Source of the DNA: Escherichia phage LH2 | Sequence record: OQ378934.1 | Reading direction: 5' to 3' (one strand) | Length of the DNA stretch: 64,000 nucleotides | In this document: positions 1,161-64,000 of the stretch, one piece after another | Numbering within the stretch: position 1 is the stretch's first letter | Layout of the letters: every line of letters begins with the position of its first letter | Notes under the pieces: generated by a model | Seen by the model: the letters and a program-made list of their open reading frames with translations, nothing else | Database searches by the model: none | Told to the model about the DNA's origin: nothing | Made by a program: the position numbers and the translations under genes

Positions 1161-1305
1161 ATAACATGGGAATAACCTGGACCTCATGATTCTATGAGGG
1201 ATTCCCGCCAACCTGTAATAAGGTCGAGCCCAAGTGCGGTAATGGGTAAATACAGAAATGGACAATTCATGCGCCACGGAATGACCCAAATTTAGAGATA
1301 ACAAA

Positions 1306-1845
1306 ATGAGAACATTTTTAACTGGTCCTTATCTATCCCTGATGAATGCTTTTACACACCATTCTGATGCTAGAGTAGAAGAAATTTGTAAAAACGAATA
1401 TATCCTGCCATTTGAAGACTTACTTAAGCAGTATTGCACACTTCGACTAGATGGTGGACGTCAATCCGGTAAATCAATTGCAGTAACTAATTTTGCCGCT
1501 AATTGGTTGTATGACGGTGGAACAGTTATTGTTCTTTCTAATAGTTCAGCTTATGCTAAAATTTCTGCAGATAACATCAAAAAGGAATTTTCGCGTTATT
1601 CTAATGATGATATACGTTTTCGTTTATTTACTGATTCTGTGTGTAGTTTTATTGGTAATAAAGGAAGCAAGTTCAGAGGTTTATCTCTTTCGCGAATTTT
1701 ATATATAATTGATGAGCCTGTCAAATCTCCTGATATGGATAAGATTTATGATGCTCATATTGACACTGTACAGTACTGCTGCAATAGTAAATGTTGCATT
1801 GGTGGTATTACTCGTCCTCAATTTTTTGTGATTGGAATGCAATGA
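1306..1845 (+). CDS. Hypothetical protein with Walker A-like motif (GGRQSGKS) and hhhhDE motif (LYIIDEP)
   Basis: 179-aa ORF with ATG start; P-loop-like motif visible in translation. Confidence 0.5.
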   Translation: MRTFLTGPYLSLMNAFTHHSDARVEEICKNEYILPFEDLLKQYCTLRLDGGRQSGKSIAVTNFAANWLYDGGTVIVLSNSSAYAKISADNIKKEFSRYSNDDIRFRLFTDSVCSFIGNKGSKFRGLSLSRILYIIDEPVKSPDMDKIYDAHIDTVQYCCNSKCCIGGITRPQFFVIGMQ

Positions 1846-2171
1846 TGACAGACACGCAACTTTTCGAGTATCTTTATTTTTCGCCAAAAACTATTAAAAA
1901 TAAATTGGTGAATCATTTTGAAATTTTGGCAAATAACAACGTCTTGAGTGAATTTTATCCTAAGCAATACAAATTGCAAAAAGGCGTATTCAAAGGATGC
2001 AGAGTTTTATGTACTGCTCCTAATGCAAAGTTAATGAATAAAATTCCATATTTTACCATGGAATTTATTGATGGGCCTTTTAAAGGACTAATTACCCAAA
2101 GTTTAATGGCATATGATTCTGAGCCATTTTTAATTAAAGAGCAATCTTGGATAAATTTATTTTCTAATTGA
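1842..2171 (+). CDS. Hypothetical protein
   Basis: ATG overlaps upstream stop (ATGA); 109 aa. Confidence 0.45.
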
Positions 2172-2179
2172 GAGGTTAT

Positions 2180-2542
2180 ATGAAAGCATATCAAATTCTT
2201 GAAGGCACGCATAAAGGTACTATTTATTTTGAAGACGGTATTCAAGCACGAATTATTGTCTCTAAAACCTTTAAAGAGGACTCTTTTGTAGACCCAGAAA
2301 TTTTCTATGGTTTGCATGCCCGTGAAATTGAAATTGAGCAACAGCCTACAGTTAAAATTGAAGGTGGTCAACACCTGAACGTTAACGTTCTGCGTCGTGA
2401 AACTCTGGAAGATGCAGTTAAGCATCCGGAAAAATATCCGCAGCTGACCATCCGTGTATCCGGTTATGCAGTTCGCTTTAACTCTCTGACTCCGGAACAG
2501 CAGCGCGACGTTATCGCTCGTACCTTCACCGAGAGTTTGTAA
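2180..2542 (+). CDS. Autonomous glycyl radical cofactor (GrcA/YfiD-like; equivalent of T4 Y06I)
   Basis: C-terminal ...[59 protein letters not shown] carries the glycyl radical motif RVSGYAVRF; SD GAGG before ATG 2180. Confidence 0.85.
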
Positions 2543-2763
2543 TGGCAAAGATAATTATTGAAGGTTCTGAAGATGTGCTAAATGCTTTCGCCGAATGGTT
2601 TAGTAATTCAGGCGAACAGCAATTTAATGAAGCGTGGACCATGGGTGATATTGATGGAATTTATCCTACGACAGAAATTTCTGTTCAAGGATATGGCATT
2701 CATGAACCTATTCGTTTAGTTGAATATGATTTGGGAACGGGTGAGGAAGTAGAATATGATTGA
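2542..2763 (+). CDS. Hypothetical protein
   Basis: 73-aa ORF, start overlaps upstream stop. Confidence 0.5.
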   Translation: MAKIIIEGSEDVLNAFAEWFSNSGEQQFNEAWTMGDIDGIYPTTEISVQGYGIHEPIRLVEYDLGTGEEVEYD

Positions 2764-3022
2764 AGATATTAAGGGTTATAAGCCACATACTGAAGAGAAA
2801 ATCGGTAAAGTGAATGCTATCAAAGACGCTGAAGTTCGTTTAGGACTTATCTTTGATGCTTTATACGATGAATTCTGGGAAGCACTAGATAATTGTGAAG
2901 ACTGTGAATTCGCGAAGAATTATGCTGAAAGCCTCGATCAGTTAACTATTGCTAAAACGAAACTCAAAGAAGCTAGTATGTGGGCTTGTCGTGCTGTGTT
3001 CCAACCAGAGGAAAAATATTAA
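2756..3022 (+). CDS. Hypothetical protein
   Basis: 88-aa ORF, overlaps neighbours by a few nt. Confidence 0.5.
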
Positions 3023-3300
3023 TGGCTCAATTAAGCGCAGGGTTTGGTTATGAGTATTATACTGCCCCTCGTCGTGTATCTGTTGTTCCTAAGAAAATTC
3101 AAAGTCTTGATGACTTCCAGGAAGTAGTCCGTAAAGCTTTCCAGGACTACGCACGTTATCTTAAAGAAGATTCACAGGACTGTCTCGAAGAAGATGAAAT
3201 TGCTTACTATGAGCAGCGTCTTGAACAGCTTAAAAACTTACATGAGGTTCGTGCAGAAGTTACAAAGTCTATGAATAAATTGATTAGATTTAAAGAATAA
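3022..3300 (+). CDS. Hypothetical protein
   Basis: Internal ATG at 3022 overlapping upstream TAA; 92 aa ([13 protein letters not shown]...). Confidence 0.5.
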
Positions 3301-3302
3301 CT

Positions 3303-3332
3303 GTTTACTTTTCCTCTTGACTGTGGTATAAT
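3303..3332 (+). promoter_or_regulatory. T4-type early promoter (GTTTAC -35, TGGTATAAT -10)
   Basis: gtttac at 3303-3308, tataat at 3327-3332, upstream of regB. Confidence 0.55.
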
Positions 3333-3359
3333 TTTTCTATCAGTTAAGAGGAGAATAAC

Positions 3360-3821
3360 ATGACTATCAACACAGAAGTTTTTATCCGTCGAAATAAGCT
3401 TCGTCGTCACTTTGAGTCGGAGTTTCGTCAAATTAACAATGAGATTCGTGAGGCATCAAAAGCAGCAGGGGTCTCATCGTTTCATCTAAAATATTCTCAG
3501 CATCTTCTTGATCGTGCAATTCAACGGGAGATTGATGAGACATATGTTTTTGAATTATTCCATAAAATAAAAGACCATGTTTTAGAAGTTAATGAATTCC
3601 TGAGTATGCCTCCACGCCCTGATATTGACGAAGATTTTATTGATGGGGTTGAATATCGTCCTGGGCGTTTAGAAATCACAGATGGAAATCTTTGGCTTGG
3701 ATTTACAGTTTGTAAACCTAATGCGAAGTTCAAAGACCCGTCACTTCAGTGCAGGATGGCAATTATCAATAGTCGTCGTTTACCAGGAAAGGCTTCTAAA
3801 GCAGTAATTAAAACTCAATGA
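3360..3821 (+). CDS. regB: Sequence-specific endoribonuclease RegB
   Basis: 153 aa, same length as T4 RegB; MTINTEVFIRRNKLRRHFESEF...; position between denV and tk. Confidence 0.85.
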   Translation: MTINTEVFIRRNKLRRHFESEFRQINNEIREASKAAGVSSFHLKYSQHLLDRAIQREIDETYVFELFHKIKDHVLEVNEFLSMPPRPDIDEDFIDGVEYRPGRLEITDGNLWLGFTVCKPNAKFKDPSLQCRMAIINSRRLPGKASKAVIKTQ

Positions 3822-5572: not shown

Positions 5573-6154
5573 ATGGCGAGTTTAATTTTTACTTATGCAG
5601 CAATGAATGCTGGAAAATCTGCTTCTCTTTTGACTGCTGCGCATAATTATAAAGAACGCGGAATGGGTGTATTAGTTCTTAAACCTGTTATTGATACTCG
5701 CGATTCTGTCTGTGAAGTCGTTTCTCGCATTGGAATTAAACAGGAAGCGAATATTATTACGGATGATATGGATATTTTTGAGTTCTATAAATGGGCTGAA
5801 GCACAAAAAGATATTCATTGCGTATTTGTAGATGAAGCTCAGTTTTTAAAAACTGAACAGGTGCATCAATTAAGCCGAATTGTCGATACATACAATGTTC
5901 CTGTTATGGCTTATGGACTAAGGACTGATTTCGCTGGAAAATTATTTGAAGGTTCTAAAGAACTTTTGGCGATTGCAGATAAACTTATTGAACTAAAAGC
6001 AGTTTGTCATTGTGGTAAAAAAGCGATTATGACAGCTCGATTAATGGAAGATGGAACACCAGTTAAAGAAGGTAATCAAATCTGTATTGGTGATGAAATT
6101 TATGTTTCTTTGTGCAGAAAACATTGGAATGAATTAACTAAAAAGCTCGGTTAG
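5573..6154 (+). CDS. tk: Thymidine kinase
   Basis: 193 aa; P-loop AAMNAGKS; Zn-binding Cys pairs near C-terminus; same length as T4 Tk. Confidence 0.9.
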   Translation: MASLIFTYAAMNAGKSASLLTAAHNYKERGMGVLVLKPVIDTRDSVCEVVSRIGIKQEANIITDDMDIFEFYKWAEAQKDIHCVFVDEAQFLKTEQVHQLSRIVDTYNVPVMAYGLRTDFAGKLFEGSKELLAIADKLIELKAVCHCGKKAIMTARLMEDGTPVKEGNQICIGDEIYVSLCRKHWNELTKKLG

Positions 6155-51278: not shown

Positions 51279-52028
51279 ATGAAACTGTCTAAAAATCAAA
51301 TTCGTAAAATTACACGTCGCTTAGAGCATACTCAGGCATCTGCCAAAAGACGTTCTAAGGATTTTAACTTAGACTTTAATTACATTAAGAACATTTTAGA
51401 TCAGAAAGTTTGCGCTTACTCGGGAGAACCTTTTGATAATCGTATTGAAGGAGAGAAATTATCATTAGAACGTTTTAATAACGATATAGGCTACATTAAA
51501 GGTAATGTTATCCCAGTTAAGAAAAAATATAACACAGCTCGTTCTGATTTAACATTAGAAGAACTTATTGAAAAACGTGATGCCATTGCAAGACGTATCG
51601 CTAATCCTTCTGCCCGTAAAGTAGAGAAACTTAATCTCGACGAGAAGAAATGGGCCCAAATTAAAAAGGTTTATGGCACTATTTTAAAAATCCGAGCAAA
51701 ACGTGAAAATCGTGTTAAGCATATGGCGAACATGATGAAAAATCAGCCTTTATCTAACGAATCTAAACTTAAAATTGCTGCTTTGAAAGCACGCATTAAT
51801 GGCTCACATCAAGCAGAAGGCCATGAACTTACTAAACTCAACGTTCTTCTTAAAGGCTCTGACTGGAAAACTAAAACTAAATTAACTGACGCTGAATCGC
51901 TTTTCGATACATATGATAAAGTTATCCAAGGTCTGCAACGTTTTGAAAAGATTGGTTTCATTGGTAAATTAAAATTGAAACGTGGCTTACCACTTAGCGC
52001 ATCATTATTCCAACTGATTAAAGGTTAA
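51279..52028 (+). CDS. srd: Srd-like protein
   Basis: 249 aa; upstream of dda as in T4; assignment by position and length only. Confidence 0.45.
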   Translation: MKLSKNQIRKITRRLEHTQASAKRRSKDFNLDFNYIKNILDQKVCAYSGEPFDNRIEGEKLSLERFNNDIGYIKGNVIPVKKKYNTARSDLTLEELIEKRDAIARRIANPSARKVEKLNLDEKKWAQIKKVYGTILKIRAKRENRVKHMANMMKNQPLSNESKLKIAALKARINGSHQAEGHELTKLNVLLKGSDWKTKTKLTDAESLFDTYDKVIQGLQRFEKIGFIGKLKLKRGLPLSASLFQLIKG

Positions 52029-52030
52029 TT

Positions 52031-52342
52031 ATGGTTTATGTATATGCAATAGTTTATCGAGATATGGAAGGATTTACTGTCCCGGTTCCACTTGATGAGC
52101 ATCGTCCTGCAGTATTTTTTAGAAAGGATATTGCAGATAAAGTTTTCGATACTTTGAAAACACAGTATAAAACAGATTTAAAAATGGGAGTTCTAAGAAT
52201 GGTCGAAACTCCGCGTAAGTTCTGGTTTAATAAGCTTGAAATGAAACACGTTAAACTAGATGCGGAGACGCAAAGATTATATCGGCGAATTTTAGATACT
52301 GGGCGTATTGTTAGTATACCAATTGCAGGGAATTTACGATGA
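52031..52342 (+). CDS. Hypothetical protein
   Basis: 103-aa ORF immediately before dda. Confidence 0.5.
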   Translation: MVYVYAIVYRDMEGFTVPVPLDEHRPAVFFRKDIADKVFDTLKTQYKTDLKMGVLRMVETPRKFWFNKLEMKHVKLDAETQRLYRRILDTGRIVSIPIAGNLR

Positions 52343-53658
52343 CATTTGATGATTTGACCGAAGGTCAGAAAAATGCCTTTAACATCGTTATGAGGGCTAT
52401 TAAAGAAAAGAAACATCATGTAACTATTAATGGACCTGCCGGTACTGGTAAGACTACTCTTACTAAGTTCATCATTGAAGCCTTAATATCTACGGGCGAA
52501 ACTGGCATTATTTTAGCAGCTCCTACTCATGCAGCTAAAAAGATTCTTTCAAAACTATCAGGGAAAGAAGCGAGTACTATTCACAGTATTCTCAAAATTA
52601 ACCCAGTAACATACGAAGAAAACGTTCTTTTTGAACAAAAAGAAGTACCGGATTTAGCCAAATGTAGAGTATTAATCTGCGACGAAGTATCAATGTATGA
52701 TAGAAAGCTATTTAAAATTTTGCTTTCAACTATTCCACCTTGGTGTACTATAATTGGAATAGGTGATAATAAGCAAATTAGACCCGTTGACCCAGGAGAA
52801 AACACTGCTTATATCAGTCCATTCTTTACACATAAAGATTTTTATCAGTGTGAACTCACTGAAGTTAAACGCAGTAATGCTCCTATTATTGATGTAGCTA
52901 CTGATGTTCGCAACGGTAAGTGGATTTATGATAAAGTTGTTGACGGGCATGGAGTACGTGGATTTACTGGTGATACCGCTTTACGCGATTTTATGGTAAA
53001 TTATTTTTCAATCGTCAAATCACTAGATGATTTGTTTGAAAATCGCGTAATGGCATTTACGAATAAATCTGTTGATAAGTTAAATAGCATTATTCGTAAA
53101 AAGATTTTTGAAACTGATAAAGATTTTATTGTCGGTGAAATTATTGTAATGCAGGAACCATTAATTAAAACATATAAAATTGATGGAAAGCCTGTGTCAG
53201 AAATTATTTTTAATAACGGACAATTAGTTCGTATTATAGAAGCAGAGTATACATCAACATTTGTTAAAGCTCGTGGTGTTCCTGGAGAATATCTAATTCG
53301 TCATTGGGATTTAACAGTAGAAACTTACGGCGATGATGAATATTATCGTGAAAAGATTAAAATAATTTCATCTGATGAAGAGCTGTATAAGTTTAACTTA
53401 TTTTTAGGTAAAACGGCAGAAACTTATAAAAATTGGAATAAAGGTGGAAAAGCTCCGTGGAGTGATTTTTGGGATGCTAAATCACAGTTTAGTAAAGTGA
53501 AAGCACTTCCTGCGTCAACATTCCATAAAGCTCAGGGCATGTCTGTAGATCGTGCTTTCATCTATACACCTTGTATTCATTATGCAGATGCTGAACTAGC
53601 ACAGCAGCTTCTTTATGTTGGTGTCACTCGTGGTCGTTATGATGTGTTTTACGTATGA
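52339..53658 (+). CDS. dda: DNA helicase Dda (SF1)
   Basis: 439 aa; Walker A GPAGTGKTT; Walker B ICDEVSM; matches T4 Dda. Confidence 0.92.
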   Translation: MTFDDLTEGQKNAFNIVMRAIKEKKHHVTINGPAGTGKTTLTKFIIEALISTGETGIILAAPTHAAKKILSKLSGKEASTIHSILKINPVTYEENVLFEQKEVPDLAKCRVLICDEVSMYDRKLFKILLSTIPPWCTIIGIGDNKQIRPVDPGENTAYISPFFTHKDFYQCELTEVKRSNAPIIDVATDVRNGKWIYDKVVDGHGVRGFTGDTALRDFMVNYFSIVKSLDDLFENRVMAFTNKSVDKLNSIIRKKIFETDKDFIVGEIIVMQEPLIKTYKIDGKPVSEIIFNNGQLVRIIEAEYTSTFVKARGVPGEYLIRHWDLTVETYGDDEYYREKIKIISSDEELYKFNLFLGKTAETYKNWNKGGKAPWSDFWDAKSQFSKVKALPASTFHKAQGMSVDRAFIYTPCIHYADAELAQQLLYVGVTRGRYDVFYV

Positions 53659-53664
53659 TTAAAT

Positions 53665-53925
53665 TTGAGGAAGCTATTCGTGGAAATAACTAAAGACCAG
53701 TTTTATCTACTTCAAGATAAAGTGAGCGAAATTTATGAAATAGCTTATAGTAAAAATCGCAAAAACGTGAAAATTGAATCAGGCAAGTTAATGCTTCAAT
53801 TGGAAGAAATTGAACGAGATTTGATTGCATTAGAATTCTTTTGCGGTGAAGTGAAAACTGTTACAATCAGTGATTATGTTTTAGGTGAAATTAGCCATCT
53901 TTATAAGGCGGTTATTAATGATTGA
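53665..53925 (+). CDS. Hypothetical protein
   Basis: 86-aa ORF. Confidence 0.5.
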   Translation: MRKLFVEITKDQFYLLQDKVSEIYEIAYSKNRKNVKIESGKLMLQLEEIERDLIALEFFCGEVKTVTISDYVLGEISHLYKAVIND

Positions 53926-54160
53926 ATTAAGTTTGCATCAGTTTAAATCTCTTGTGGCAAATGTTAAAGCTGTCATTCAAGAAAATTCAGGACCTGATAA
54001 TGTTACTATTCGCGAAAAAGCTTTAAAGATAGTATACAGTCTTGAAGAGATACAAAAAGATATTGAATCTATGGCAAAATTTATTGATGAGCCCATTAAT
54101 AAAGTTTATATCCAAGATTATACTGTAGGTCAAATTCGCGATTTAGCGAGGAAAATTTAA
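53918..54160 (+). CDS. Hypothetical protein
   Basis: Internal ATG 53918; 80 aa; similar in pattern to the upstream ORF. Confidence 0.45.
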   Translation: MIELSLHQFKSLVANVKAVIQENSGPDNVTIREKALKIVYSLEEIQKDIESMAKFIDEPINKVYIQDYTVGQIRDLARKI

Positions 54161-54843
54161 TGTTTGATTTTATTATAGATTTTGAAACAATGGGAAGCGG
54201 TGAAAAGGCAGCTGTTATTGATTTGGCTGTTATTGCCTTTGACCCTAATCCAGAAGTAGTTGAAACATTTGATGAATTAGTTTCACGTGGCATTAAAATC
54301 AAATTTGATTTAAAAAGTCAAAAAGGACATCGTCTTTTTACTAAAAGCACTATCGAATGGTGGAAAAATCAGTCTCCTGAAGCTCGAAAAAATATTGCAC
54401 CATCAGATGAAGATGTAAGCACTATCGATGGTATTGTAAAATTTAATGATTACATCAATGCACATAATATCGATCCTTGGAAATCTCAAGGCTGGTGCCG
54501 TGGAATGTCGTTTGATTTTCCAATTTTAGTCGATCTCATTCGCGATATTCAACGTCTTAATGGCGTTTCTGAGAATGAACTTGACACATTTAAGTTAGAA
54601 CCATGTAAATTCTGGAATCAGCGTGATATTCGTACCAGAATTGAAGCACTTCTGCTTGTTCGTGATATGACCACATGTCCTCTTCCAAAGGGAACTTTAG
54701 ATGGATTCGTTGCACATGATTCTATTCATGACTGTGCGAAAGACATCCTGATGATGAAGTATGCTTTGCGATATGCTATGGGTCTTGAAGATGCTCCATC
54801 AGAGGAAGAGTGCGATCCTCTTTCTCTTCCAACAAAACGATAA
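54160..54843 (+). CDS. dexA: Exonuclease A (DexA)
   Basis: 227 aa; MFDFIIDFETMGSGEKAAVIDLAVIAF... DEDDh-type motifs; matches T4 DexA. Confidence 0.88.
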   Translation: MFDFIIDFETMGSGEKAAVIDLAVIAFDPNPEVVETFDELVSRGIKIKFDLKSQKGHRLFTKSTIEWWKNQSPEARKNIAPSDEDVSTIDGIVKFNDYINAHNIDPWKSQGWCRGMSFDFPILVDLIRDIQRLNGVSENELDTFKLEPCKFWNQRDIRTRIEALLLVRDMTTCPLPKGTLDGFVAHDSIHDCAKDILMMKYALRYAMGLEDAPSEEECDPLSLPTKR

Positions 54844-54849
54844 AAAGTT

Positions 54850-54879
54850 GTTTACTTCCTCGGTTAGTTGTGGTATTAT
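54850..54879 (+). promoter_or_regulatory. T4-type early promoter
   Basis: gtttac 54850-54855; tattat 54874-54879. Confidence 0.5.
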
Positions 54880-54906
54880 AACACCATAGCTACTGAGGAT
54901 AATAAA

Positions 54907-55407
54907 ATGAAAATTTATCGTGTTGAATCATCTTTTAGTATTCTTAATTATGAAGATGCTATAACAATACGTCGAAATCTTTGTGTTCAAATAACGCCGT
55001 ACAGGAGTATAATAGATTCATGGAGCGAAGAGTGGCTATTACACGTAGGTTATGACAGACCTAATTTTATGCATCATAGTGATAATAATAAAAGAATTCC
55101 TTTACCACACGAAGATAAACTATTAGTTAAAAACGCTAATATAGTAATTAATACTAAGTTCAAGAAAGATTATGTTGGAGTAGAATATCATATTCCAGGA
55201 TGGTTTATAGCTCTTTATCATTTTGCTTTCGCTAGTGAATATGATATGATGAGATGGTTCACACGAGAAGAGCGGGAAGAATTATCTTCTAAAGGATTTT
55301 ATCTCGCTGTATACGAAGTTCCTGAAGATGAAGTTATCATTGGCGGGCACCAAGTAATGTTCCGCAAATCGCATGCTGAACTCGTAGATTTTATTGAAAT
55401 GAGATAA
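54907..55407 (+). CDS. Hypothetical protein (MotB-region gene)
   Basis: ATG 54907 downstream of the promoter; 166 aa. Confidence 0.5.
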   Translation: MKIYRVESSFSILNYEDAITIRRNLCVQITPYRSIIDSWSEEWLLHVGYDRPNFMHHSDNNKRIPLPHEDKLLVKNANIVINTKFKKDYVGVEYHIPGWFIALYHFAFASEYDMMRWFTREEREELSSKGFYLAVYEVPEDEVIIGGHQVMFRKSHAELVDFIEMR

Positions 55408-55409
55408 TT

Positions 55410-55952
55410 ATGAAATTTAATTATAATCCTGAATACATACCAAATCCGGTAGCTAAACTGATTGATTTTGATGTTGTAAGCACTTATGTATGCCCTGTTA
55501 AACCACTGGAAATTAAGGAACCTACTATGACTACCGCTATTGAAATCGGCAAAACCTACAAACTAGTTGAACCTGAAATTAAAACTAATGCCTTGATTTC
55601 CGGCCATAAAACTTTGACTGATGTTTTTGGCGAAGGCGAATTTACCGTTGAAGACTTTGAAAAAAGTAAATGGTTTACTAAATCTTATATTGTCCACGGT
55701 CGTCGTTTAGACAACAACAAAATAGAGAAAATCCTAGTTTATGAAGCAGAGTTCATCCTGTTCCAAGAAGTTGAAGAACAAGACCCTACCGACCTTCTAA
55801 CTCGTGCAGTAGCTATTAAGACCCCATTTATTTCGGTCTGTGGTTGGGTAACAGACCAGTGGATTGAAGATGGTGTTGAACTTCTGAACGTTGTTCATGC
55901 AGGTGATTTTAGCGTAGTACCTCGTAGTGCAGTGGTAGCTATTTTGAATTAA
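55410..55952 (+). CDS. Hypothetical protein (tandem paralog 1)
   Basis: 180 aa; C-terminal block ...CGWVTDQWIEDGVELLNVV... Confidence 0.5.
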   Translation: MKFNYNPEYIPNPVAKLIDFDVVSTYVCPVKPLEIKEPTMTTAIEIGKTYKLVEPEIKTNALISGHKTLTDVFGEGEFTVEDFEKSKWFTKSYIVHGRRLDNNKIEKILVYEAEFILFQEVEEQDPTDLLTRAVAIKTPFISVCGWVTDQWIEDGVELLNVVHAGDFSVVPRSAVVAILN

Positions 55953-55954
55953 TA

Positions 55955-55984
55955 GTTTACAAACTCTTGGGACCAGAGTATAAT
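55955..55984 (+). promoter_or_regulatory. T4-type early promoter
   Basis: gtttac 55955-55960; tataat 55979-55984. Confidence 0.5.
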
Positions 55985-56028
55985 GGTCCCGTGGAGTATA
56001 AAATCTTTTTAACAAGTGAGAGATAACT

Positions 56029-56517
56029 ATGATTATTAATATTGGTGAAATTGCTCGTGTATCTGATAAATCCCGTTCTAAAGCAGCAGGAAAATTGGTC
56101 GAAATTGTAAGCATTCAGCTTAAACACGGTGTTAAAGATGAAGATTCTGAAGTAAAAGTTCGTATCATTCCTAAAGATGGAAAGTCTAAACCTCAGTTTG
56201 GTTATGTTCGCGCGAAATTTCTTGAATCTGCGTTTTTGAAAGCTGTTCCTGCTAAAGGAATTGAAACGATTGATACTTCGCATGTAGGTGTAGACTTTAA
56301 GTGGAAACTCGGTCAAGCTATTAAGTTCGTTGCTCCTTATGAATTTAACTTTATCAAAGACGATGGAAGGGTTGTTTATACTCGTGCTATGTGTGGATAC
56401 ATTACCGATCAATGGGTAGAAGATGGTGTTAAGCTGTACAATGTGGTATTTTTAGGAACATACAAAGTCATTCCTGAAAGTTGGATTAAACACTATAGCA
56501 ATGCTCTCTATGCATAA
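56029..56517 (+). CDS. Hypothetical protein (tandem paralog 2)
   Basis: 162 aa; C-terminal block ...CGYITDQWVEDGVKLYNVV... shared with the 55410 ORF. Confidence 0.5.
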   Translation: MIINIGEIARVSDKSRSKAAGKLVEIVSIQLKHGVKDEDSEVKVRIIPKDGKSKPQFGYVRAKFLESAFLKAVPAKGIETIDTSHVGVDFKWKLGQAIKFVAPYEFNFIKDDGRVVYTRAMCGYITDQWVEDGVKLYNVVFLGTYKVIPESWIKHYSNALYA

Positions 56518-56550
56518 AGTTTAAATTTTTTCATAAAACTATATACATCA

Positions 56551-56628
56551 GTAGTTGATTATGGTACTATATCAATATCAACTACTGATACAGAAAACAA
56601 CTTGGAGAATAAAATGGAAATTCGCTAA
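56551..56628 (+). repeat. Promoter-leader cassette (PeSL-like), copy D, carrying a 4-codon micro-ORF
   Basis: tggtactatatcaatatcaac ... ttggagaataaaATGGAAATTCGCTAA; leader conserved with copies A and C but ORF stops after MEIR. Confidence 0.5.
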
Positions 56629-56687
56629 AGGTGCTGATACTCTTCTGAAACGCATCGCTCCAATGTTCAATTAATGAGGAAATTGTA

Positions 56688-56903
56688 ATGAAACGTAAAA
56701 TTGTTCAGAATTGCACTAATGATGAATTTGAAGATGTATTATTCGATCCAGATTTGGTAGTAGTTCAAAAGGAACATACTAGCAAGTTTACTCACTTGAC
56801 TTCGGTTTATGTGTATGAGAAAGTCGGTGATAAACAGCCAATTTATGGTGTATTTCGTGAAATTACTGAAGATGGCACAACTTACTGGAAGGAAATTTAT
56901 TAA
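56688..56903 (+). CDS. Hypothetical protein
   Basis: 71 aa; SD GAGGAAA. Confidence 0.5.
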
Positions 56904-57322
56904 TGGCTATTAAATTTGAAGTTAATAAATGGTATCAATTTAAAAATAAACAAGCTCAAGAAAATTTTATTAAAGACCATACTGATAACGGAATCTATGC
57001 ACGACGTTTAGGTATGGAGCCTTTTAAAATTTTAGATGCTGATTATCTTGGGCGTCCTACTAAAATTATGACATCCATAGGTGTGCTCAAACGTTGTGCC
57101 GGCGGTGATATCCTTGATGAAAACTTTATCTGGCTCTCTACTAACGAAGCTGGGTTCTTTGATGAAGTTGAAAATCCATATCAGGCTGCTGAAGAACAAG
57201 AGCAGGAAGAGCAAGAACAAATAGAAGATTTCACAGAATTCCCGGTAATGAAAGTTACTATTGAAAATAATGAACAAGCATGGTCTTTGTATCAGATGTT
57301 GAAAGCTCACTTTAAGGAATAA
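56903..57322 (+). CDS. Hypothetical protein with acidic Gln/Glu stretch
   Basis: 139 aa; [16 protein letters not shown]. Confidence 0.5.
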
Positions 57323-57324
57323 TT

Positions 57325-57501
57325 ATGCCTCTTTATGATTATAAATGTCAATCCAAAGACTGCGCAAAAGAATACGAAAAAATCAAGAAAATTTCTGAAA
57401 GGGATACTGATGTATGTCCTGATTGTCATCGGATTGCTATTCGGTTAGTTTCCGCTCCTAAGCATGTGAATGGTGGATTTTACGACTTACTTAAAGGGTG
57501 A
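57325..57501 (+). CDS. FmdB-family-like zinc-ribbon protein (58 aa, below ORF-track cutoff)
   Basis: MPLYDYKC..C...CPDC pattern typical of FmdB-type zinc ribbons. Confidence 0.5.
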   Translation: MPLYDYKCQSKDCAKEYEKIKKISERDTDVCPDCHRIAIRLVSAPKHVNGGFYDLLKG

Positions 57502-57503
57502 TT

Positions 57504-57875
57504 ATGTTTAAAATCGGTAAGAAATATCGTGTTCGCGAAGGTGAAGAAAAGAAATATCTACTTTCTTCTATTTATAGGAATGGTTCTATTAATGCCGTAA
57601 TATCTACAAGTGAATTTATCGTTGAAGATATGAAAGGTAATAATGTTACAATGATTAGTACATCATCTGGAAATGATGGAAAAATTCTTCACAGTTTTCA
57701 GAGTAATGTTCTAATTTATGATGAAGAATTTGACTTCTTCGAAGAAGTTCCTGAAGATTTTGATTTTGGATGCACCATCACTATGAAATCTGGCGACCCT
57801 CTTTCTTTTACAGTTAAAGATGAAAGAAGTCGCTTGAGAATTATTAGTCTCCTTCAAGCCATTAAATTTGAGTGA
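57504..57875 (+). CDS. Hypothetical protein
   Basis: ATG 57504; 123 aa. Confidence 0.5.
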   Translation: MFKIGKKYRVREGEEKKYLLSSIYRNGSINAVISTSEFIVEDMKGNNVTMISTSSGNDGKILHSFQSNVLIYDEEFDFFEEVPEDFDFGCTITMKSGDPLSFTVKDERSRLRIISLLQAIKFE

Positions 57876-57879
57876 AATT

Positions 57880-58140
57880 ATGAAATATGTTAATCGTTCT
57901 ATCGCGGCATTAGTATTAGCAGTATCTTTAGTAGGATGTACTGATGCTGATAACGCAACCAAAGTTTTGTCTTCAAGCGGTTTTACTAATATTGAAATCA
58001 CTGGATACAATTGGTTCGGTTGCTCTGAAAATGATTTCCAGCATACTGGATTTCGTGCTATTGGACCTACTGGGCAGAAAGTAGAAGGAACAGTATGTTC
58101 TGGGCTGTTCTTTAAGGATTCGACTATCCGTTTTAAATAA
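57880..58140 (+). CDS. Lipoprotein
   Basis: MKYVNRSIAALVLAVSLVGC lipobox. Confidence 0.55.
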   Translation: MKYVNRSIAALVLAVSLVGCTDADNATKVLSSSGFTNIEITGYNWFGCSENDFQHTGFRAIGPTGQKVEGTVCSGLFFKDSTIRFK

Positions 58141-58142
58141 AA

Positions 58143-58154
58143 GGCCTTCGGGCC
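58143..58154 (+). terminator. UUCG-loop hairpin after the lipoprotein gene
   Basis: ggcc-ttcg-ggcc. Confidence 0.45.
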
Positions 58155-58209
58155 TTTAGCTTTATGATTACCGGAGTATAATATTCCCGAAACCAAACGA
58201 GGATAAGTG

Positions 58210-59760
58210 ATGATTAAGAATGAAATTAAAATTCTGAGCGATATTGAACATATCAAAAAGCGTAGCGGCATGTACATTGGTTCTTCTGCTAATGAAATGC
58301 ATGAGCGCTTTCTGTTTGGTAAATGGGAAAGTGTTCAGTATGTACCTGGTCTTGTTAAGCTTATTGATGAAATTATCGATAACTCAGTAGATGAAGGTAT
58401 TCGTACTAAGTTTAAATTCGCAAATAAAATTAATGTTACCATTAAAAATAATCAGGTAACAGTTGAAGATAACGGTCGTGGTATTCCACAAGCGATGGTT
58501 AAAACACCTACCGGTGAAGAAATTCCTGGTCCAGTTGCTGCATGGACTATTCCAAAAGCAGGTGGTAACTTTGGTGATGATAAAGAACGCGTCACTGGCG
58601 GTATGAACGGTGTTGGTTCTAGTTTAACTAACATTTTTTCTGTGATGTTTGTCGGCGAAACTGGCGATGGTCAAAATAATATTGTAGTTCGTTGTTCAAA
58701 TGGCATGGAAAATAAATCGTGGGAAACTATTCCTGGAAAATGGAAAGGAACTCGTGTTACTTTCATTCCTGATTTTATGTCATTTGAAACTAATGAGCTA
58801 TCTCAGGTTTATCTTGACATTACATTAGATCGTCTCCAGACACTTGCAGTAGTTTATCCTGATATTCAATTTACCTTTAATGGTAAAAAGGTTCAGGGTA
58901 ATTTTAAGAAATACGCACGCCAATATGATGAGCATGCTATCGTTCAAGAACAAGAAAATTGTTCTATTGCGGTTGGTCGTTCACCGGATGGTTTTCGTCA
59001 ATTAACATACGTCAATAACATTCATACTAAGAATGGTGGCCATCACATTGACTGTGTTATGGATGATATTTGTGAAGACCTTATTCCACAAATCAAACGT
59101 AAATTTAAAATTGACGTAACTAAAGCACGTGTTAAAGAATGTTTGACTATCGTTATGTTTGTTCGTGATATGAAAAACATGCGATTTGATTCTCAAACTA
59201 AAGAGCGTTTGACTTCTCCATTTGGTGAAATTCGTAGTCATATTCAGCTTGATGCTAAAAAGATTTCACGTGCTATTTTAAATAATGAAGCAATTTTAAT
59301 GCCAATTATTGAAGCTGCCTTAGCTCGTAAATTGGCGGCAGAAAAAGCAGCAGAAACTAAAGCAGCTAAAAAGGCCTCTAAAGCTAAGGTTCATAAACAT
59401 ATCAAAGCGAATCTTTGTGGTAAAGATGCTGACACGACTCTTTTCTTGACTGAGGGTGATTCTGCTATCGGATATCTTATTGATGTTCGTGATAAAGAAC
59501 TTCATGGTGGTTATCCATTGCGTGGTAAAGTTCTTAACAGTTGGGGTATGTCATATGCTGATATGCTTAAAAACAAAGAACTGTTTGATATTTGCGCAAT
59601 CACTGGATTAGTTCTTGGTGAAAAGGCATTTGAAGAAAAAGAAGATGGCGAGTGGTTTACTTTCGAACTAAATGGCGATACAATTATCGTAAATGAAAAT
59701 GATGAAGTACAGATTAATGGTAAATGGATAACAGTAGGTGAATTACGAAAAAATCTATAA
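58210..59760 (+). CDS. 39: DNA topoisomerase II large subunit gp39 (GyrB-like ATPase and TOPRIM start)
   Basis: 516 aa from ATG 58210; GHKL ATPase motifs (DNSVDEG, GRGIP, GGMNGVGSS). Confidence 0.9.
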   Translation: MIKNEIKILSDIEHIKKRSGMYIGSSANEMHERFLFGKWESVQYVPGLVKLIDEIIDNSVDEGIRTKFKFANKINVTIKNNQVTVEDNGRGIPQAMVKTPTGEEIPGPVAAWTIPKAGGNFGDDKERVTGGMNGVGSSLTNIFSVMFVGETGDGQNNIVVRCSNGMENKSWETIPGKWKGTRVTFIPDFMSFETNELSQVYLDITLDRLQTLAVVYPDIQFTFNGKKVQGNFKKYARQYDEHAIVQEQENCSIAVGRSPDGFRQLTYVNNIHTKNGGHHIDCVMDDICEDLIPQIKRKFKIDVTKARVKECLTIVMFVRDMKNMRFDSQTKERLTSPFGEIRSHIQLDAKKISRAILNNEAILMPIIEAALARKLAAEKAAETKAAKKASKAKVHKHIKANLCGKDADTTLFLTEGDSAIGYLIDVRDKELHGGYPLRGKVLNSWGMSYADMLKNKELFDICAITGLVLGEKAFEEKEDGEWFTFELNGDTIIVNENDEVQINGKWITVGELRKNL

Positions 59761-60556
59761 TGACTTAATAGTGCGGGGTAAAACCCGCGTTTCTAAATTT
59801 AAGGGTGAAATTCATCATATCCTTCCAAGATCAATGGGAGGTTCTGATGATAAAGAAAATTTGGTGAAACTGACTTTTCGTGAACACTTTTTAGCACATT
59901 TTCTACTATATAAAATTCATCGTAATCGTGAAATGGCATATGCGATGAATAGAATGTTAAACACTGAAAAATATTTACGTTCTAGTAAATTATATGAAAT
60001 TGCTAGAATTTACCATCAAAGAGCAGTATCTGAATGGTCAAAAAACTTTATGAAAGATAAAGTTTTAATGAGAAGTATTAAATCGGGTAAATGCGCCTTA
60101 TTAATTAAAGGATCATTTAACCCAAAGGAATGGTGCGGTGTTAATAAAGGTGTTAAGCTTCCTGGAATTAAAGGCATGACATGCTTTAAAAATGAAAAGG
60201 GCGAAGTTTTTCGTCTTCATGTTAATGATCCACGCATTAAAGCTGAAAAATTAGTTGGTATTGGAAATACTGTTGCTGCTACTGCAAAAGCAGCTGAACT
60301 TGAAAAAGCGAAACCATGGTATAATAAATCAGCGACAAATCCAGAGGCTGTAAAATTAATACCAAATTTATATGAATGGTACGTCACGAAATATGACCCC
60401 GATCATTATAAACGAACAGGAGTTGCTAAATGGAAATCAGTTAATAATATAACTGTGAATTCAAAATTATTCGGCCGAGCATTTAATGAATTTAAACGCG
60501 GTTGGATTCCTGATGAAAAGTTCTATGAGGTGTATAATGAAATTTGTAAAAATTGA
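59738..60556 (+). CDS. mobA: HNH homing endonuclease (MobA-like) inserted between 39 and 60
   Basis: GTG start overlapping the 3' end of 39; HNH motif GEIHHILPRSMGGSDDKENLVKLTFREH; paralog of the 46237 ORF. Confidence 0.75.
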   Translation: MNYEKIYNDLIVRGKTRVSKFKGEIHHILPRSMGGSDDKENLVKLTFREHFLAHFLLYKIHRNREMAYAMNRMLNTEKYLRSSKLYEIARIYHQRAVSEWSKNFMKDKVLMRSIKSGKCALLIKGSFNPKEWCGVNKGVKLPGIKGMTCFKNEKGEVFRLHVNDPRIKAEKLVGIGNTVAATAKAAELEKAKPWYNKSATNPEAVKLIPNLYEWYVTKYDPDHYKRTGVAKWKSVNNITVNSKLFGRAFNEFKRGWIPDEKFYEVYNEICKN

Positions 60557-60674
60557 TTCTTCTAGCGTTGATATGAAAAAATATAAATTGCAGAACAATG
60601 TTCGTCGTTCTATTAAATCCTCTTCAATGAACTATGCGAATGTCGCTATTATGACAGACGCAGATCACGATGGA
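60537..60674 (+). CDS. 60: Topoisomerase II subunit gp60, codons 1-46 (before the bypass)
   Basis: MKFVKIDSSSVDMKKYKLQNNVRRSIKSSSMNYANVAIMTDADHDG ending at take-off GGA 60672-60674. Confidence 0.85.
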
Positions 60675-60724
60675 TAGCCTTCGGGCTATCCATAGAAATA
60701 CCTCATAATTAAGAGATTATTGGA
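60675..60724 (+). other. 60: 50-nt translational bypass (coding gap) of gene 60
   Basis: UAG stop directly after take-off GGA; stem-loop tagc-cttcgg-gcta; landing GGA at 60722-60724; frame resumes at TTA 60725. Confidence 0.85.
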
Positions 60725-61069
60725 TTAGGTTCTATTTATCCTTCTTTGCTCGGATTTTTTAGTAATTGGCCAGAACTGTTTGAACAAGGAAGAATTCGCT
60801 TTGTCAAAACTCCTGTAATCATCGCTCAGGTCGGTAAAAAACAAGAATGGTTTTATACAGTCGCTGAATACGAGAGTGCTAAAGATGCTCTACCTAAACA
60901 TAGCATCCGTTATATTAAGGGACTTGGCTCTTTGGAAAAATCTGAATATCGTGAGATGATTCAAAACCCAGTATATGATGTTGTTAAACTTCCTGAGAAC
61001 TGGAAAGAGCTTTTTGAAATGCTCATGGGAGATAATGCTGACCTTCGTAAAGAATGGATGAGCCAATAG
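60725..61069 (+). CDS. 60: Topoisomerase II subunit gp60, codons 47-160 (after the bypass)
   Basis: LGSIYPSLLGFFSNWPELFEQGRIRFVKTPVII...; combined length 160 aa. Confidence 0.85.
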   Translation, partial: LGSIYPSLLGFFSNWPELFEQGRIRFVKTPVIIAQVGKKQEWFYTVAEYESAKDALPKHSIRYIKGLGSLEKSEYREMIQNPVYDVVKLPENWKELFEMLMGDNADLRKEWMSQ

Positions 61070-61098
61070 TTTACTTTACCACAAGGATGTGGTATAAT
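61069..61098 (+). promoter_or_regulatory. T4-type early promoter (near-identical to 15121-15150)
   Basis: gtttac 61069-61074; tataat 61093-61098. Confidence 0.55.
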
Positions 61099-61123
61099 TA
61101 ATTGGGCAAATGAGGATATTGAA

Positions 61124-61327
61124 ATGAAATCATATAAAGTAAATTTAGAACTATTTGATAAAGCAGTTCATCGAGAATATAGAATCATTCAACGCTTTTT
61201 CGATATGGGAGAAGCCGAAGAGTTTAAAAACCGCTTTAAGGATATTAGAGATAAAATTCAATCCGACACTGCAACTAAAGATGAACTACTAGAAGTTGCT
61301 GAAGTTATTAAACGCAATATGAATTAA
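61124..61327 (+). CDS. Hypothetical protein (rIIA.1 position)
   Basis: 67-aa ORF immediately upstream of rIIA. Confidence 0.5.
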
Positions 61328-61337
61328 TGAGGAAATT

Positions 61338-63515
61338 ATGATTATCACCACTGAAAAAGAAACAATTCTTGGTAATGGTTCTAAATCAAAAGCATTTAGC
61401 ATCACAGCGTCTCCTAAAGTATTTAAAATTCTGTCATCTGATTTGTATACAAACAAGATTCGCGCAGTGGTTCGTGAATTGATTACCAACATGATTGATG
61501 CCCATGCTCTTAATGGAAATCCTGAAAAATTTATCATTCAAGTTCCAGGACGATTAGATCCGCGATTTGTTTGCCGAGATTTTGGTCCGGGTATGAGCGA
61601 TTTTGATATTCAGGGTGATGATAATTCTCCTGGGTTGTATAATTCATACTTTAGTTCATCTAAGGCTGAATCTAATGATTTCATTGGTGGATTTGGTTTA
61701 GGTTCTAAATCTCCGTTTAGTTATACTGATACATTTAGTATTACTTCGTACCATAAAGGCGAAATTCGTGGTTATGTAGCTTACATGGATGGTGATGGTC
61801 CGCAGATTAAACCTACATTCGTAAAAGAAATGGGTCCAAATGATAAAACTGGTATTGAAATCGTAGTTCCAGTTGAAGAAAAAGATTTTAGAAACTTTGC
61901 TTATGAAGTTTCTTATATCATGCGACCGTTCAAAGATTTGGCTATCATTAATGGTCTTGACCGCGAAATTGATTATTTTCCGGATTTTGATGACTATTAC
62001 GGTGTAAATCCAGAAAGATATTGGCCAGATCGTGGTGGATTGTATGCTATCTATGGTGGTATTGTTTATCCTATCGATGGTGTTATTAGAGACCGTAACT
62101 GGTTAAGCATCCGCAATGAAGTGAATTACATTAAGTTTCCAATGGGTTCACTTGATATTGCTCCATCGCGTGAGGCTCTTTCATTAGATGATCGTACTCG
62201 TAAAAATATTATTGAGCGTGTTAAAGAGCTCAGTGAGCAGGCATTTAATGAAGATGTAAAACGATTTAAAGAATCTACATCTCCTCGTCATACATACCGT
62301 GAATTGATGAAGATGGGATATTCTGCTCGAGATTATATGATTAGCAATTCAGTCAAATTTACGACTAAAAATCTGTCATATAAAAAGATGCAGAGCATGT
62401 TTGAACCTGACAGTAAGTTATGCAATGCAGGGGTTGTGTATGAAGTAAATCTTGACCCTCGACTGAAACGCATTAAGCAAAGCCATGAAACTTCAGCCGT
62501 TGCGTCAAGCTATCGTCTGTTTGGTATTAATACGACAAAAATTAATATTGTTATTGATAATATTAAAAATCGTGTTAATATTGTCCGTGGATTAGCACGT
62601 GCATTAGATGATAGTGAATTTAATAACACTTTAAATATTCATCACAATGAGCGTCTTCTGTTTATTAATCCGGAAGTAGAATCGCAGATTGATTTGCTTC
62701 CTGATATTATGGCAATGTTTGAAAGTGATGAAGTTAACATTCATTATTTGTCAGAAATTGAAGCTTTAGTTAAAAGTTATATTCCAAAGGCAGTAAAAAG
62801 TACAGCTCCTCGTCCTAAAACTGCCACTGCGTTTAAGTTTGAAATTAAAGACGGGCGCTGGGAAAAAGAGGAACTGTTTACGCTCACATCAGAAGCAGAT
62901 GAAATTACTGGTTATGTAGCATATATGCATCGTTCTGATATTTTCTCTATGGATGGTACTACATCGCTTTGTAATCCATCTACGAGTATTTTGACCCGTA
63001 TGGCTAATCTTATTGGCATTAATGAATTTTATGTTATTCGTCCACTTTTGCAGAAAAAGGTAAAAGAACTTGGTCAGTGCCAATGTATTTTTGAAACTCT
63101 GCGTGATTTATATGTAGATGCTTTTGATGCTGTAGATTATGATAAGTATGTAGGTTATTCGAGTTCAGCTAAACGATATATTGATAAAATTATCAAGTAT
63201 CCTGAACTAGATTTTATGATGAAGTACTTCAGTGTAGATGAAGTTTCCGAAGAATATACTCGCCTTGGTAATATGGTTAGTTCATTGCAGGGTATATATT
63301 TCAACGGTGGAAAAGATACCATCGGTCATGACATCTGGACAGTAACTAATCTTTTTGAAACACTATCATATAATGCTTCAAAAAACAGTGATAAAATGGT
63401 TGCTGAGTTTACCAAGAAATTCCGTATTGTTTCCGATTTCATCGGTTATCGCAACTCTTTAAGTGATGATGAAGTTTCCCAAATCGCTAAAACTATGAAG
63501 GCCCTTGCGGCCTAA
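61338..63515 (+). CDS. rIIA: Rapid-lysis protein rIIA
   Basis: 725 aa; ATPase-like N-terminal domain; length and position match T4 rIIA. Confidence 0.92.
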
Positions 63516-63526
63516 TAAGGAAAATT

Positions 63527-64000
63527 ATGTACAATATTAAATGCCTGACCAAAAACGAACAAGCTGAAATTGTCAAACTGTATTCAAGTGGTAATTACAC
63601 CCAACAGGAATTGGCTGATTGGCAAGGTGTATCGGTTGACACAATCCGTCGTGTTTTGAAAAATGCTGAAGAAGCTGAACGCTCTAAAGTTACCATTAGC
63701 GGTGACATTACAGTTACAGTTAATAGCGATGCAGTTATTGCTCCAGTTGCTAAATCTGACATTATTTGGAATGCATCTAAAAAATTCATTTCAATTACTG
63801 TTGACGGCGTAACTTATAACGCAACTCCTAATACTCATTCAAACTTCCAGGAAATTCTTAATCTGCTTGTAGCGGATAAGTTGGAAGAAGCGGCACAAAA
63901 AATTAACGTTCGTCGCGCTGTTGAAAAATATATTTCCGGTGATGTTCGAATTGAAGGTGGAAGCTTGTTCTATCAAAATATTGAATTACGGTCTGGTTTA
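63527..64000 (+). CDS. rIIB: Rapid-lysis protein rIIB (5' partial, runs off window)
   Basis: MYNIKCLTKNEQAEIVKLYSSGNYTQQELADWQGVSVDTIRRVL...; open to the window end. Confidence 0.85.
   Translation, partial: MYNIKCLTKNEQAEIVKLYSSGNYTQQELADWQGVSVDTIRRVLKNAEEAERSKVTISGDITVTVNSDAVIAPVAKSDIIWNASKKFISITVDGVTYNATPNTHSNFQEILNLLVADKLEEAAQKINVRRAVEKYISGDVRIEGGSLFYQNIELRSGL

Follow-up and report, generated by a model that had tools for sequence, protein, structure and literature searches.

Overwriting of the radical-domain DNA of phage gene vs.6 by Escherichia coli grcA: probable host-to-phage gene conversion in T-even phages

Results and Discussion

We analyzed 64,000 nt of DNA from Escherichia phage LH2 (sequence record OQ378934.1; this whole stretch is referred to below as the window) and found that vs.6, which encodes a small glycyl-radical cofactor protein, contains an internal tract that is identical over 169 consecutive bases to the commonest E. 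coli grcA allele. The best explanation, to which we assign a probability of roughly 0.88, is that homologous recombination with host chromosomal grcA overwrote the radical-domain DNA of an old, AT-rich phage homologue of this gene. Recombination with the host gene had been proposed in an initial annotation of this DNA, and the proposal agrees with both the 169/169 identity of the tract and the non-uniform codon usage of the gene.

Gene context of vs.6

The first 6 kb of the window carry e, denV, vs.8, vs.7, vs.6, vs.5, vs.4, vs.3, and regB, and continue to tk, in the order found in T4. All are on the plus strand, with e (lysozyme) at 190–684, denV at 744–1160, regB at 3360–3821, and tk at 5573–6154. 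The vs.6 (Y06I) gene, encoding a 120-aa GrcA-like stand-alone glycyl-radical cofactor, occupies 2180–2542 on the plus strand, including the stop codon, as supported by its open reading frame, Pfam and PDB 6OWR matches, and synteny with T4. Its ATG start codon at 2180 is preceded by a GAGG ribosome-binding site at 2171–2174, and its stop codon shares its final A with the ATG of vs.5 at 2542. The upstream and downstream neighbors, vs.7 (1842–2171, plus strand; phrog_2049) and vs.5 (2542–2763, plus strand; phrog_1986), are open reading frames in ordinary phage DNA. The closest records are from Tequatrovirus phages, such as Pinarejo and CM8 (99.4% identity over the vs.6 gene), and the orthologue in the T4 reference NC_000866 is vs.6, labelled "autonomous glycyl radical cofactor GrcA".

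A scan of 1200–3400 for promoters and terminators returned no signal exceeding chance. An antisense open reading frame of 197 aa (1955–2548, minus strand), which runs across vs.7 and vs.6, is almost certainly spurious. In the window, denV directly follows e (684–744), an arrangement also present in phage Pinarejo; in T4 (L166), denV adjoins ipII, and we take ipII and ipIII to lie between denV and e in that phage.

vs.6 encodes a GrcA homologue along its length

The 120-aa vs.6 product is a small (~14 kDa) stand-alone protein that consists essentially of a glycyl-radical domain. Residues 60–101 match profile positions 65–106 of 106, the C-terminal part of Pfam family Gly_radical (PF01228; E = 2.5e-18), and the best solved structure is that of E. 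coli GrcA/YfiD (PDB 6OWR; E = 9e-42), in an alignment that extends back into the N-terminal half of vs.6 as far as residue 22. Residues 92–98 read RVSGYAV and include the conserved radical glycine. According to the sequence and the alignment to 6OWR, this residue, Gly95, encoded by the GGT codon at 2462–2464 (plus strand) in the RVSGY motif, is the equivalent of G102 of GrcA and G734 of PflB.

PMC8683613, citing Wagner et al. (2001), gives YfiD and T4 Y06I as the two validated "spare part" proteins for PFL. As described there, the PFL-activating enzyme PflA installs a glycyl radical on the spare part, which then docks on PflB that has been cut by oxygen at Gly734 and makes it active again. Gly95 of vs.6 is the predicted radical glycine, with its role taken from the same source.

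The N-terminal half of vs.6 is also related to GrcA. Compared on their own, the N-terminal halves of vs.6 and GrcA (GrcA residues 28–66) are 36% identical over 39 aa (E = 1e-5), and the NCBIfam GrcA equivalog model TIGR04365 aligns with vs.6 residues 20–120. The window protein, which differs from the T4 protein at two residues, scores 154.9 bits against this model and thus falls under the 170-bit cut-off because its N-terminal half has diverged, compared with 233.9 bits for E. coli GrcA. Despite this sub-cut-off score of the window protein, the RefSeq name for T4 vs.6 is "GrcA". The whole vs.6 gene is thus an old, diverged homologue of grcA. The gene had been described initially as a chimera of a phage N-terminal domain and a host radical domain; the host radical domain stands, but the N-terminal half is a distant GrcA homologue instead of an unrelated phage domain. 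This homology rules out fusion of an unrelated phage domain to a host domain.

A 169-nt tract in vs.6 is identical to E. coli grcA

The first half of vs.6 had been called AT-rich and phage-like, and this description is accurate: positions 2180–2356 have a GC content of 0.350, near the 34.5% of the phage overall, and a GC3 of 0.237, equal to the mean GC3 of the window's genes (0.238). By contrast, GC rises to 0.497 and GC3 to 0.439 (z = 3.1) at 2357–2527. The tract GC3 is in the top 0.5% of 12,117 57-codon windows taken from the window's own genes, where the codon and GC3 comparison was restricted to plus-strand genes. The tract encodes all five of its Leu residues by CTG and all three of its Pro residues by CCG, codons that account for 7.8% of Leu codons and 12.8% of Pro codons in the phage; the joint probability of this combination is 6e-9. 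Thus, the second half of the gene is GC-richer and uses E. coli codons, as had been claimed, and codon usage along vs.6 is not uniform (GC3 of 0.237 versus 0.439).

BLASTN searches of 5,426 complete E. coli genomes matched vs.6 gene positions 179–363 to grcA in every genome (97.3%), and the tract is at least 99% identical in 5,156 of the 5,426 genomes. In pairwise alignment with the commonest E. coli grcA allele, the tract, which encodes the glycyl-radical domain, extends over 2358–2526 (plus strand) with 169/169 consecutive bases identical. Its identity is 98.8% to a non-coli Escherichia, 91.7% to Citrobacter, 87.0% to Klebsiella, and 82.8% to Salmonella. The phage-type 5' half at 2180–2357 (plus strand), a diverged homologue of the GrcA N-terminal half, gives no DNA-level alignment to E. 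coli grcA, and the left limit of the tract is the start of phage-host similarity, TTGAAGGTGG, at the EGGQHLN motif. On the right, the tract is bounded by a phage-type 3' end at 2527–2542 (plus strand), which comprises the C of TTC, then ACC GAG AGT TTG, plus the TAA stop codon. The last five sense codons are TTC ACC GAG AGT TTG in the window versus TTT ACT GAA AGC CTG in E. coli. All five mismatches to E. coli are synonymous and are confined to these codons, and the probability that five differing codons of 61 are exactly the terminal five is 1.7e-7.

Alignment, which had been suggested as the way to locate the breakpoint, therefore fixed the host-identical limits at 2358 and 2526. The initial annotation had placed the copied stretch at 2364–2542. 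Its host-like 3' half was borne out, and the C-terminal peptide of 59 residues that it quoted is exactly encoded by the 2180–2542 open reading frame; however, Gly62 begins at 2363, one base from the proposed start, and the tract really covers 2358–2526. Nor does the copied stretch run to the end of the gene, since the host tract ends ~16 nt before the end of the stop codon and 2527–2542 is phage-type. The GAG AGT of this 3' end also occurs in RB43-type and KP15-type phages. The phage state of the last 16 nt and the phage-type DNA upstream of 2358 together argue that host DNA replaced the interior of a pre-existing homologue, such that the tract is an internal gene-conversion patch in an older phage grcA homologue, not a captured 3' end. 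Megablast searches of 2600–27000, 27001–52000, and 52001–64000 against the 5,426 E. coli genomes gave no match. With these 61 kb (2600–64000) searched, the vs.6 tract is the only near-host-identical DNA.

The tract is widespread in Tequatrovirus and Mosigvirus and is younger than their split

The chimeric vs.6 gene is not private to phage LH2. About 645 phage records from Tequatrovirus and Mosigvirus, T4 included, carry the tract at ≥ 95% identity; divided by band, 387 records are at ≥ 99%, 255 at 95–99%, and 3 at 90–95%. The 5' half is present at ≥ 80% identity in about 648 records, of which 3 are at ≥ 99%, 437 at 95–99%, 71 at 90–95%, and 137 at 80–90%. Three records were fetched from this last band, and all three were Mosigvirus. 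Across the two genera, the 5' half is 87.6–100% identical.

We determined synonymous divergence (Nei-Gojobori dS) between the window and three Mosigvirus phages. Values were 0.66–0.75 for vs.8, about 0.88–1.1 for vs.7, and about 1.9 to saturated for vs.5, vs.4, vs.3, and regB (about 1.9–2.5 for vs.5), compared to 0.43–0.58 for the vs.6 5' half and 0.07–0.13 for the tract (3–5 differences over 43 synonymous sites). Recombination statistics consisted of Fisher and combinatorial tests on 12 phage copies. By Fisher's exact test, the tract differed from the 5' half with p = 4e-4 to 8e-3 and from the pooled flanks (pS about 0.62) with p ≤ 1.6e-10. Between the window and a Mosigvirus contig (L088), the tract shows 0/169 differences, against 18/178 for the 5' half and 57/200 for the downstream DNA in vs.5. 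The low tract dS and the unbroken identity in this contig imply that the tract postdates the split of Tequatrovirus and Mosigvirus by a wide margin, having been acquired by the two genera independently or passed from one to the other. The 3' half of the gene had been described as recently copied, which holds in the relative sense that the tract is younger than this split and indistinguishable from living E. coli alleles.

Variants within the phage tracts are mostly GC-to-AT changes (9 versus 4). Three Mosigvirus-specific tract variants occurred in none of the 5,426 E. coli genomes, and therefore they are read as post-transfer mutations that give no evidence of separate donors. We considered an origin of these variants from rare E. 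coli alleles, which would indicate separate donors, and rejected it, as the best E. coli match was the major allele (96.8%). The phage-tract variants look like decay following transfer.

Several records stood apart in this survey. The three phage records in the 90–95% band may represent T-even phages whose tract came from a different donor, for example Citrobacter (91.7% to E. coli). A 142,418-bp record labelled as a P. aeruginosa phage ("Pseudomonas phage vB_PSGBLB0006", PV654520.1; H92) has a vs.6 tract that is 100% identical to E. coli, which suggests a mislabelled or contaminated T4-like genome or else an unusual host claim. In Escherichia phage vB_Eco_Some (OZ034686.1, locus 493–650; L175), a 79-nt tandem duplication inside the tract repeats gene positions ~271–349 and frameshifts the end of vs.6, giving a 126-aa product. 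This duplication may be genuine, produced by slippage or recombination inside the tract, or it may be an artifact of assembly.

Host-specific conversion in phages of other hosts

A parallel arrangement is present in Jiaodavirus phages of Klebsiella (KPV15, Wolf_ER13, and AM_K2), in which the 5' half has a GC3 of 0.20–0.27 and the radical domain a GC3 of 0.58–0.60. The Jiaodavirus tract is 94–97% identical to the K. pneumoniae-complex grcA alleles that were fetched and 88% identical to E. coli. In KPV15, the tract matches K. pneumoniae-complex grcA at 96.4% (159/165), and the last 21 nt are phage-type (13/21 matching). In all, 140 Klebsiella and Raoultella phage records match the Klebsiella tract at 90–97%, in alignments that end 10–15 nt before the stop codon. 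Either the Jiaodavirus event is older or its donor is unsampled. E. coli-type and Klebsiella-type phage tracts differ about as much as the hosts do, which implies that the acquisitions were independent and host-specific. A set of contigs (L089–L093) considered as an unconverted sibling of the Klebsiella phages was rejected, as it represents a different lineage that is about 70% identical to L108 throughout, so that the contrast is not a presence/absence polymorphism inside a single genus.

Seven uncultured IMG/VR phage contigs of roughly 30–155 kb (L101–L106 and L113), at least one of which (L101) is from Human Microbiome Project data, encode a full-length GrcA-like protein with a radical domain like that of Pasteurellaceae (NPDKYPQ variant). 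In one of these, the oral phage contig L103, a run of at least 56 nt is identical to Haemophilus grcA, and the corresponding region has about eight differing sites in five sibling contigs. This patch points to a Haemophilus host for L103.

Conversion is not general. Karamvirus, RB43-like, Slopekvirus, Krischvirus, and T5-like phages have domains that are only 70–84% identical to any bacterial grcA. The domains of Krischvirus, whose host is E. coli, and of T5-like phages are unconverted (about 75% identity). Likewise, we found no Salmonella-like or Enterobacter-like tracts in phages, for which the best matches were E. coli-type tracts at 84–86%.

Three further groups of records were noted. The KP15-type Slopekvirus phages of Klebsiella L099 and L100 encode a protein variant (RRETLLDAVEH) of Klebsiella/Salmonella type in DNA that is ~83% identical to any host, and could represent an old, largely ameliorated conversion or convergence. 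An IMG/VR contig (L111) carries a bacterial-type grcA that is 91% identical to that of Yersinia, and IMG/VR contigs L152–L162 carry the C-terminus of a full-length pflB. Both are probably bacterial or prophage-flanking DNA and not phage spare-part genes.

Variable right ends and recurrence of the exchange

We compared five informative sites near the vs.6 3' end (gene positions 348, 351, 354, 357, and 358), which read T T A C C in E. coli and C C G T T in the window. The other phage haplotypes are T C G T T (L083), T T G T T (L085), T T A T T (T4), T T G T C (L084 and Mosigvirus), and T T G C T (L086). Variants at these sites are always of the E. coli state or the phage state; the 348/351/354 series is nested, and 357/358 is mosaic. 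Four phages with no more than 2/178 differences upstream and 0/169 in the tract have three different end haplotypes. This pattern is what varying conversion end-points would produce, and it is compatible with either host or other phage partners, between which it does not tell. All 12 E. coli T-even copies that were examined share one left junction, which would be expected if homology starts there and also fits a single origin.

The mechanism that we envisage is homologous (homeologous) recombination of the phage genome, during its replication, with pieces of host DNA, a natural form of "marker rescue" that would proceed by UvsX-type recombination. Pieces of the degraded chromosome that contain grcA would convert the phage copy where the radical domain is similar enough for strand invasion, and after conversion, the 170 bp of perfect homology would ease further exchange. 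T4 recombination proteins readily incorporate homologous DNA that contains cytosine into phage genomes, and this uptake is the basis of plasmid marker rescue and of insertion/substitution vectors. The conserved domain would be kept host-matched through its recognition by host PflA and its fit to the host's cleaved PflB, and selection may thereby favor a radical domain that exactly matches both host proteins. Active PFL in micro-aerobic infection may supply acetyl-CoA/ATP as well as formate for the phage anaerobic ribonucleotide reductase. Class III ribonucleotide reductase uses formate as its reductant, and NrdD of T4 is such an enzyme.

If exchange recurs within E. coli phages, as we suppose, the radical-domain DNA of vs.6 would be in continuing concerted evolution with host grcA, with chromosomal fragments repeatedly overwriting the phage copy and keeping the spare part matched to the PflA and PflB of the local host. 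We propose this extension tentatively, at somewhat below even odds. A single host-to-phage transfer into one E. coli T-even phage, followed by phage-phage spread in co-infections and no continuing host exchange, is likewise a serious possibility that falls short of an even chance. It is consistent with the shared left junction (12/12 copies), with the origin of all tracts from the same major E. coli allele, and with lineage variants that are mostly GC-to-AT decay absent in E. coli. Moreover, the dS of the 5' half (0.43–0.58) is below that of most flanking genes, a hint of phage-phage exchange around the locus. However, the nested and mosaic right ends need several events with a partner of the other state, and unconverted alleles number 0 among the about 645 records. 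The host-specific Jiaodavirus and L103 events further argue against a single transfer, as they show that host-to-phage conversion of the radical domain is recurrent.

Age and direction of the exchange

An ancient acquisition of grcA by the T-even ancestor, with near-identity kept by nucleotide or codon selection, is very improbable. The fully conserved (100%) protein domain has to be compatible with host PflA and PflB, as this explanation would require, but protein selection leaves synonymous sites unfixed. In addition, other T4-like genera that infect the same hosts or related ones encode nearly the same domain at 70–84% nucleotide identity and a GC3 of about 0.2–0.47, so that the 100% identity of the vs.6 tract to E. 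coli grcA exceeds that of T4-like homologues, as the initial annotation required. Furthermore, the tract follows the host species, resembling E. coli in coliphages and Klebsiella in Jiaodavirus.

Sequence identity by itself is silent on direction, and the 3' half of E. coli grcA could in principle have come from a T-even phage, although we consider this reverse transfer more improbable still. In base composition and codon usage, the tract is of host type and stands out from the rest of the phage. E. coli grcA adjoins ung, with the same ung-grcA synteny in Klebsiella as in other enterobacteria, and the two halves of E. coli grcA are equally diverged from those of Salmonella (0.843 and 0.844) and Klebsiella (0.869 and 0.876). 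Together, these properties argue that the transfer ran from host to phage. No evidence of phage-to-host transfer was found at vs.6/grcA. Last, although host DNA is present in phage stocks, mis-assembly of host reads into phage genomes has a negligible chance of being correct, as the same junctions recur in hundreds of independent assemblies, the T4 reference, and metagenomic contigs, with an unbroken reading frame and phage-specific tract ends.

Implications and comparison with known systems

T4 is the textbook virulent phage, which shuts off its host and degrades host DNA, and to our knowledge, it has rarely been found to bear signs of recent DNA exchange with E. coli. The presence of a bounded, host-identical tract in two genera with saturated flanks, together with its Klebsiella counterpart, implies that host chromosomal DNA enters T-even genomes by homologous recombination, at least where phage and host copies stay similar. 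Overwriting of vs.6 by host grcA is of note as a mosaic in a model virulent phage that shows 100% identity, is repeated and host-specific, and is experimentally easy to test; the locus thus provides a simple experimental handle on host-to-phage gene conversion. It also suggests that a spare-part protein must closely match host PflA and PflB. The tract may mark a phage's recent host, and if concerted evolution is true, a ~170-nt host "barcode" could identify the recent hosts of uncultured phages.

The vs.6 protein, its biochemical role, and this kind of event (in psbA/psbD) are already known. Nolan et al. (2006) reported a Pfam match only for vs.6 and suggested a role in nucleotide metabolism. 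We found no description of the vs.6 nucleotide mosaic in the literature on T4 and glycyl-radical enzymes that was searched, and the mosaic is apparently undescribed; an earlier remark is possible in the T4 review of Miller et al. (2003), which was outside this search.

Among the known systems, T4 vs.6 (Y06I_BPT4) is the orthologue of the window gene, with the same position in the order vs.8-vs.7-vs.6-vs.5-vs.4-vs.3-regB, a 5' half that is 97.8% identical, and a tract that differs at 1/169 positions. Unlike the window gene, T4 vs.6 has the tract change G218A (Arg to His), and its tract extends one informative site further 3' (TTT ACT GAA). E. coli GrcA (YfiD, 6OWR) matches vs.6 at 100% between GrcA residues 68–127 and vs.6 residues 61–120, with DNA identical over 169 nt and the same RVSGY site, whereas the N-terminal half of vs.6 is about 36% identical over 39 aa and 7 residues shorter. 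The Jiaodavirus grcA-like gene resembles vs.6 in its AT-rich 5' half, host-like GC-rich radical domain, and phage-type last codons, but its donor was Klebsiella (94–97%) instead of E. coli.

The nearest precedent for the event is the host-phage intragenic recombination of cyanophage psbA/psbD, to which patchy G+C first pointed (Zeidner, 2005; Sullivan, 2006, PMC1484495). Like these genes, vs.6 is a phage-borne counterpart of a host metabolic gene with segments of host ancestry and recombination within the gene. It has full-length homology to the host gene and patchy G+C and codon usage inside the gene, and its tract groups with the host and the rest of vs.6 with phages, as judged by the identity matrix, dS, and clustered mismatches. 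Unlike the cyanophage genes, vs.6 is carried by T-even phages of enterobacteria, which modify their DNA and break down that of the host, and its mosaic is a single, sharply bounded ~170-nt tract of 100% identity that always covers the same functional domain.
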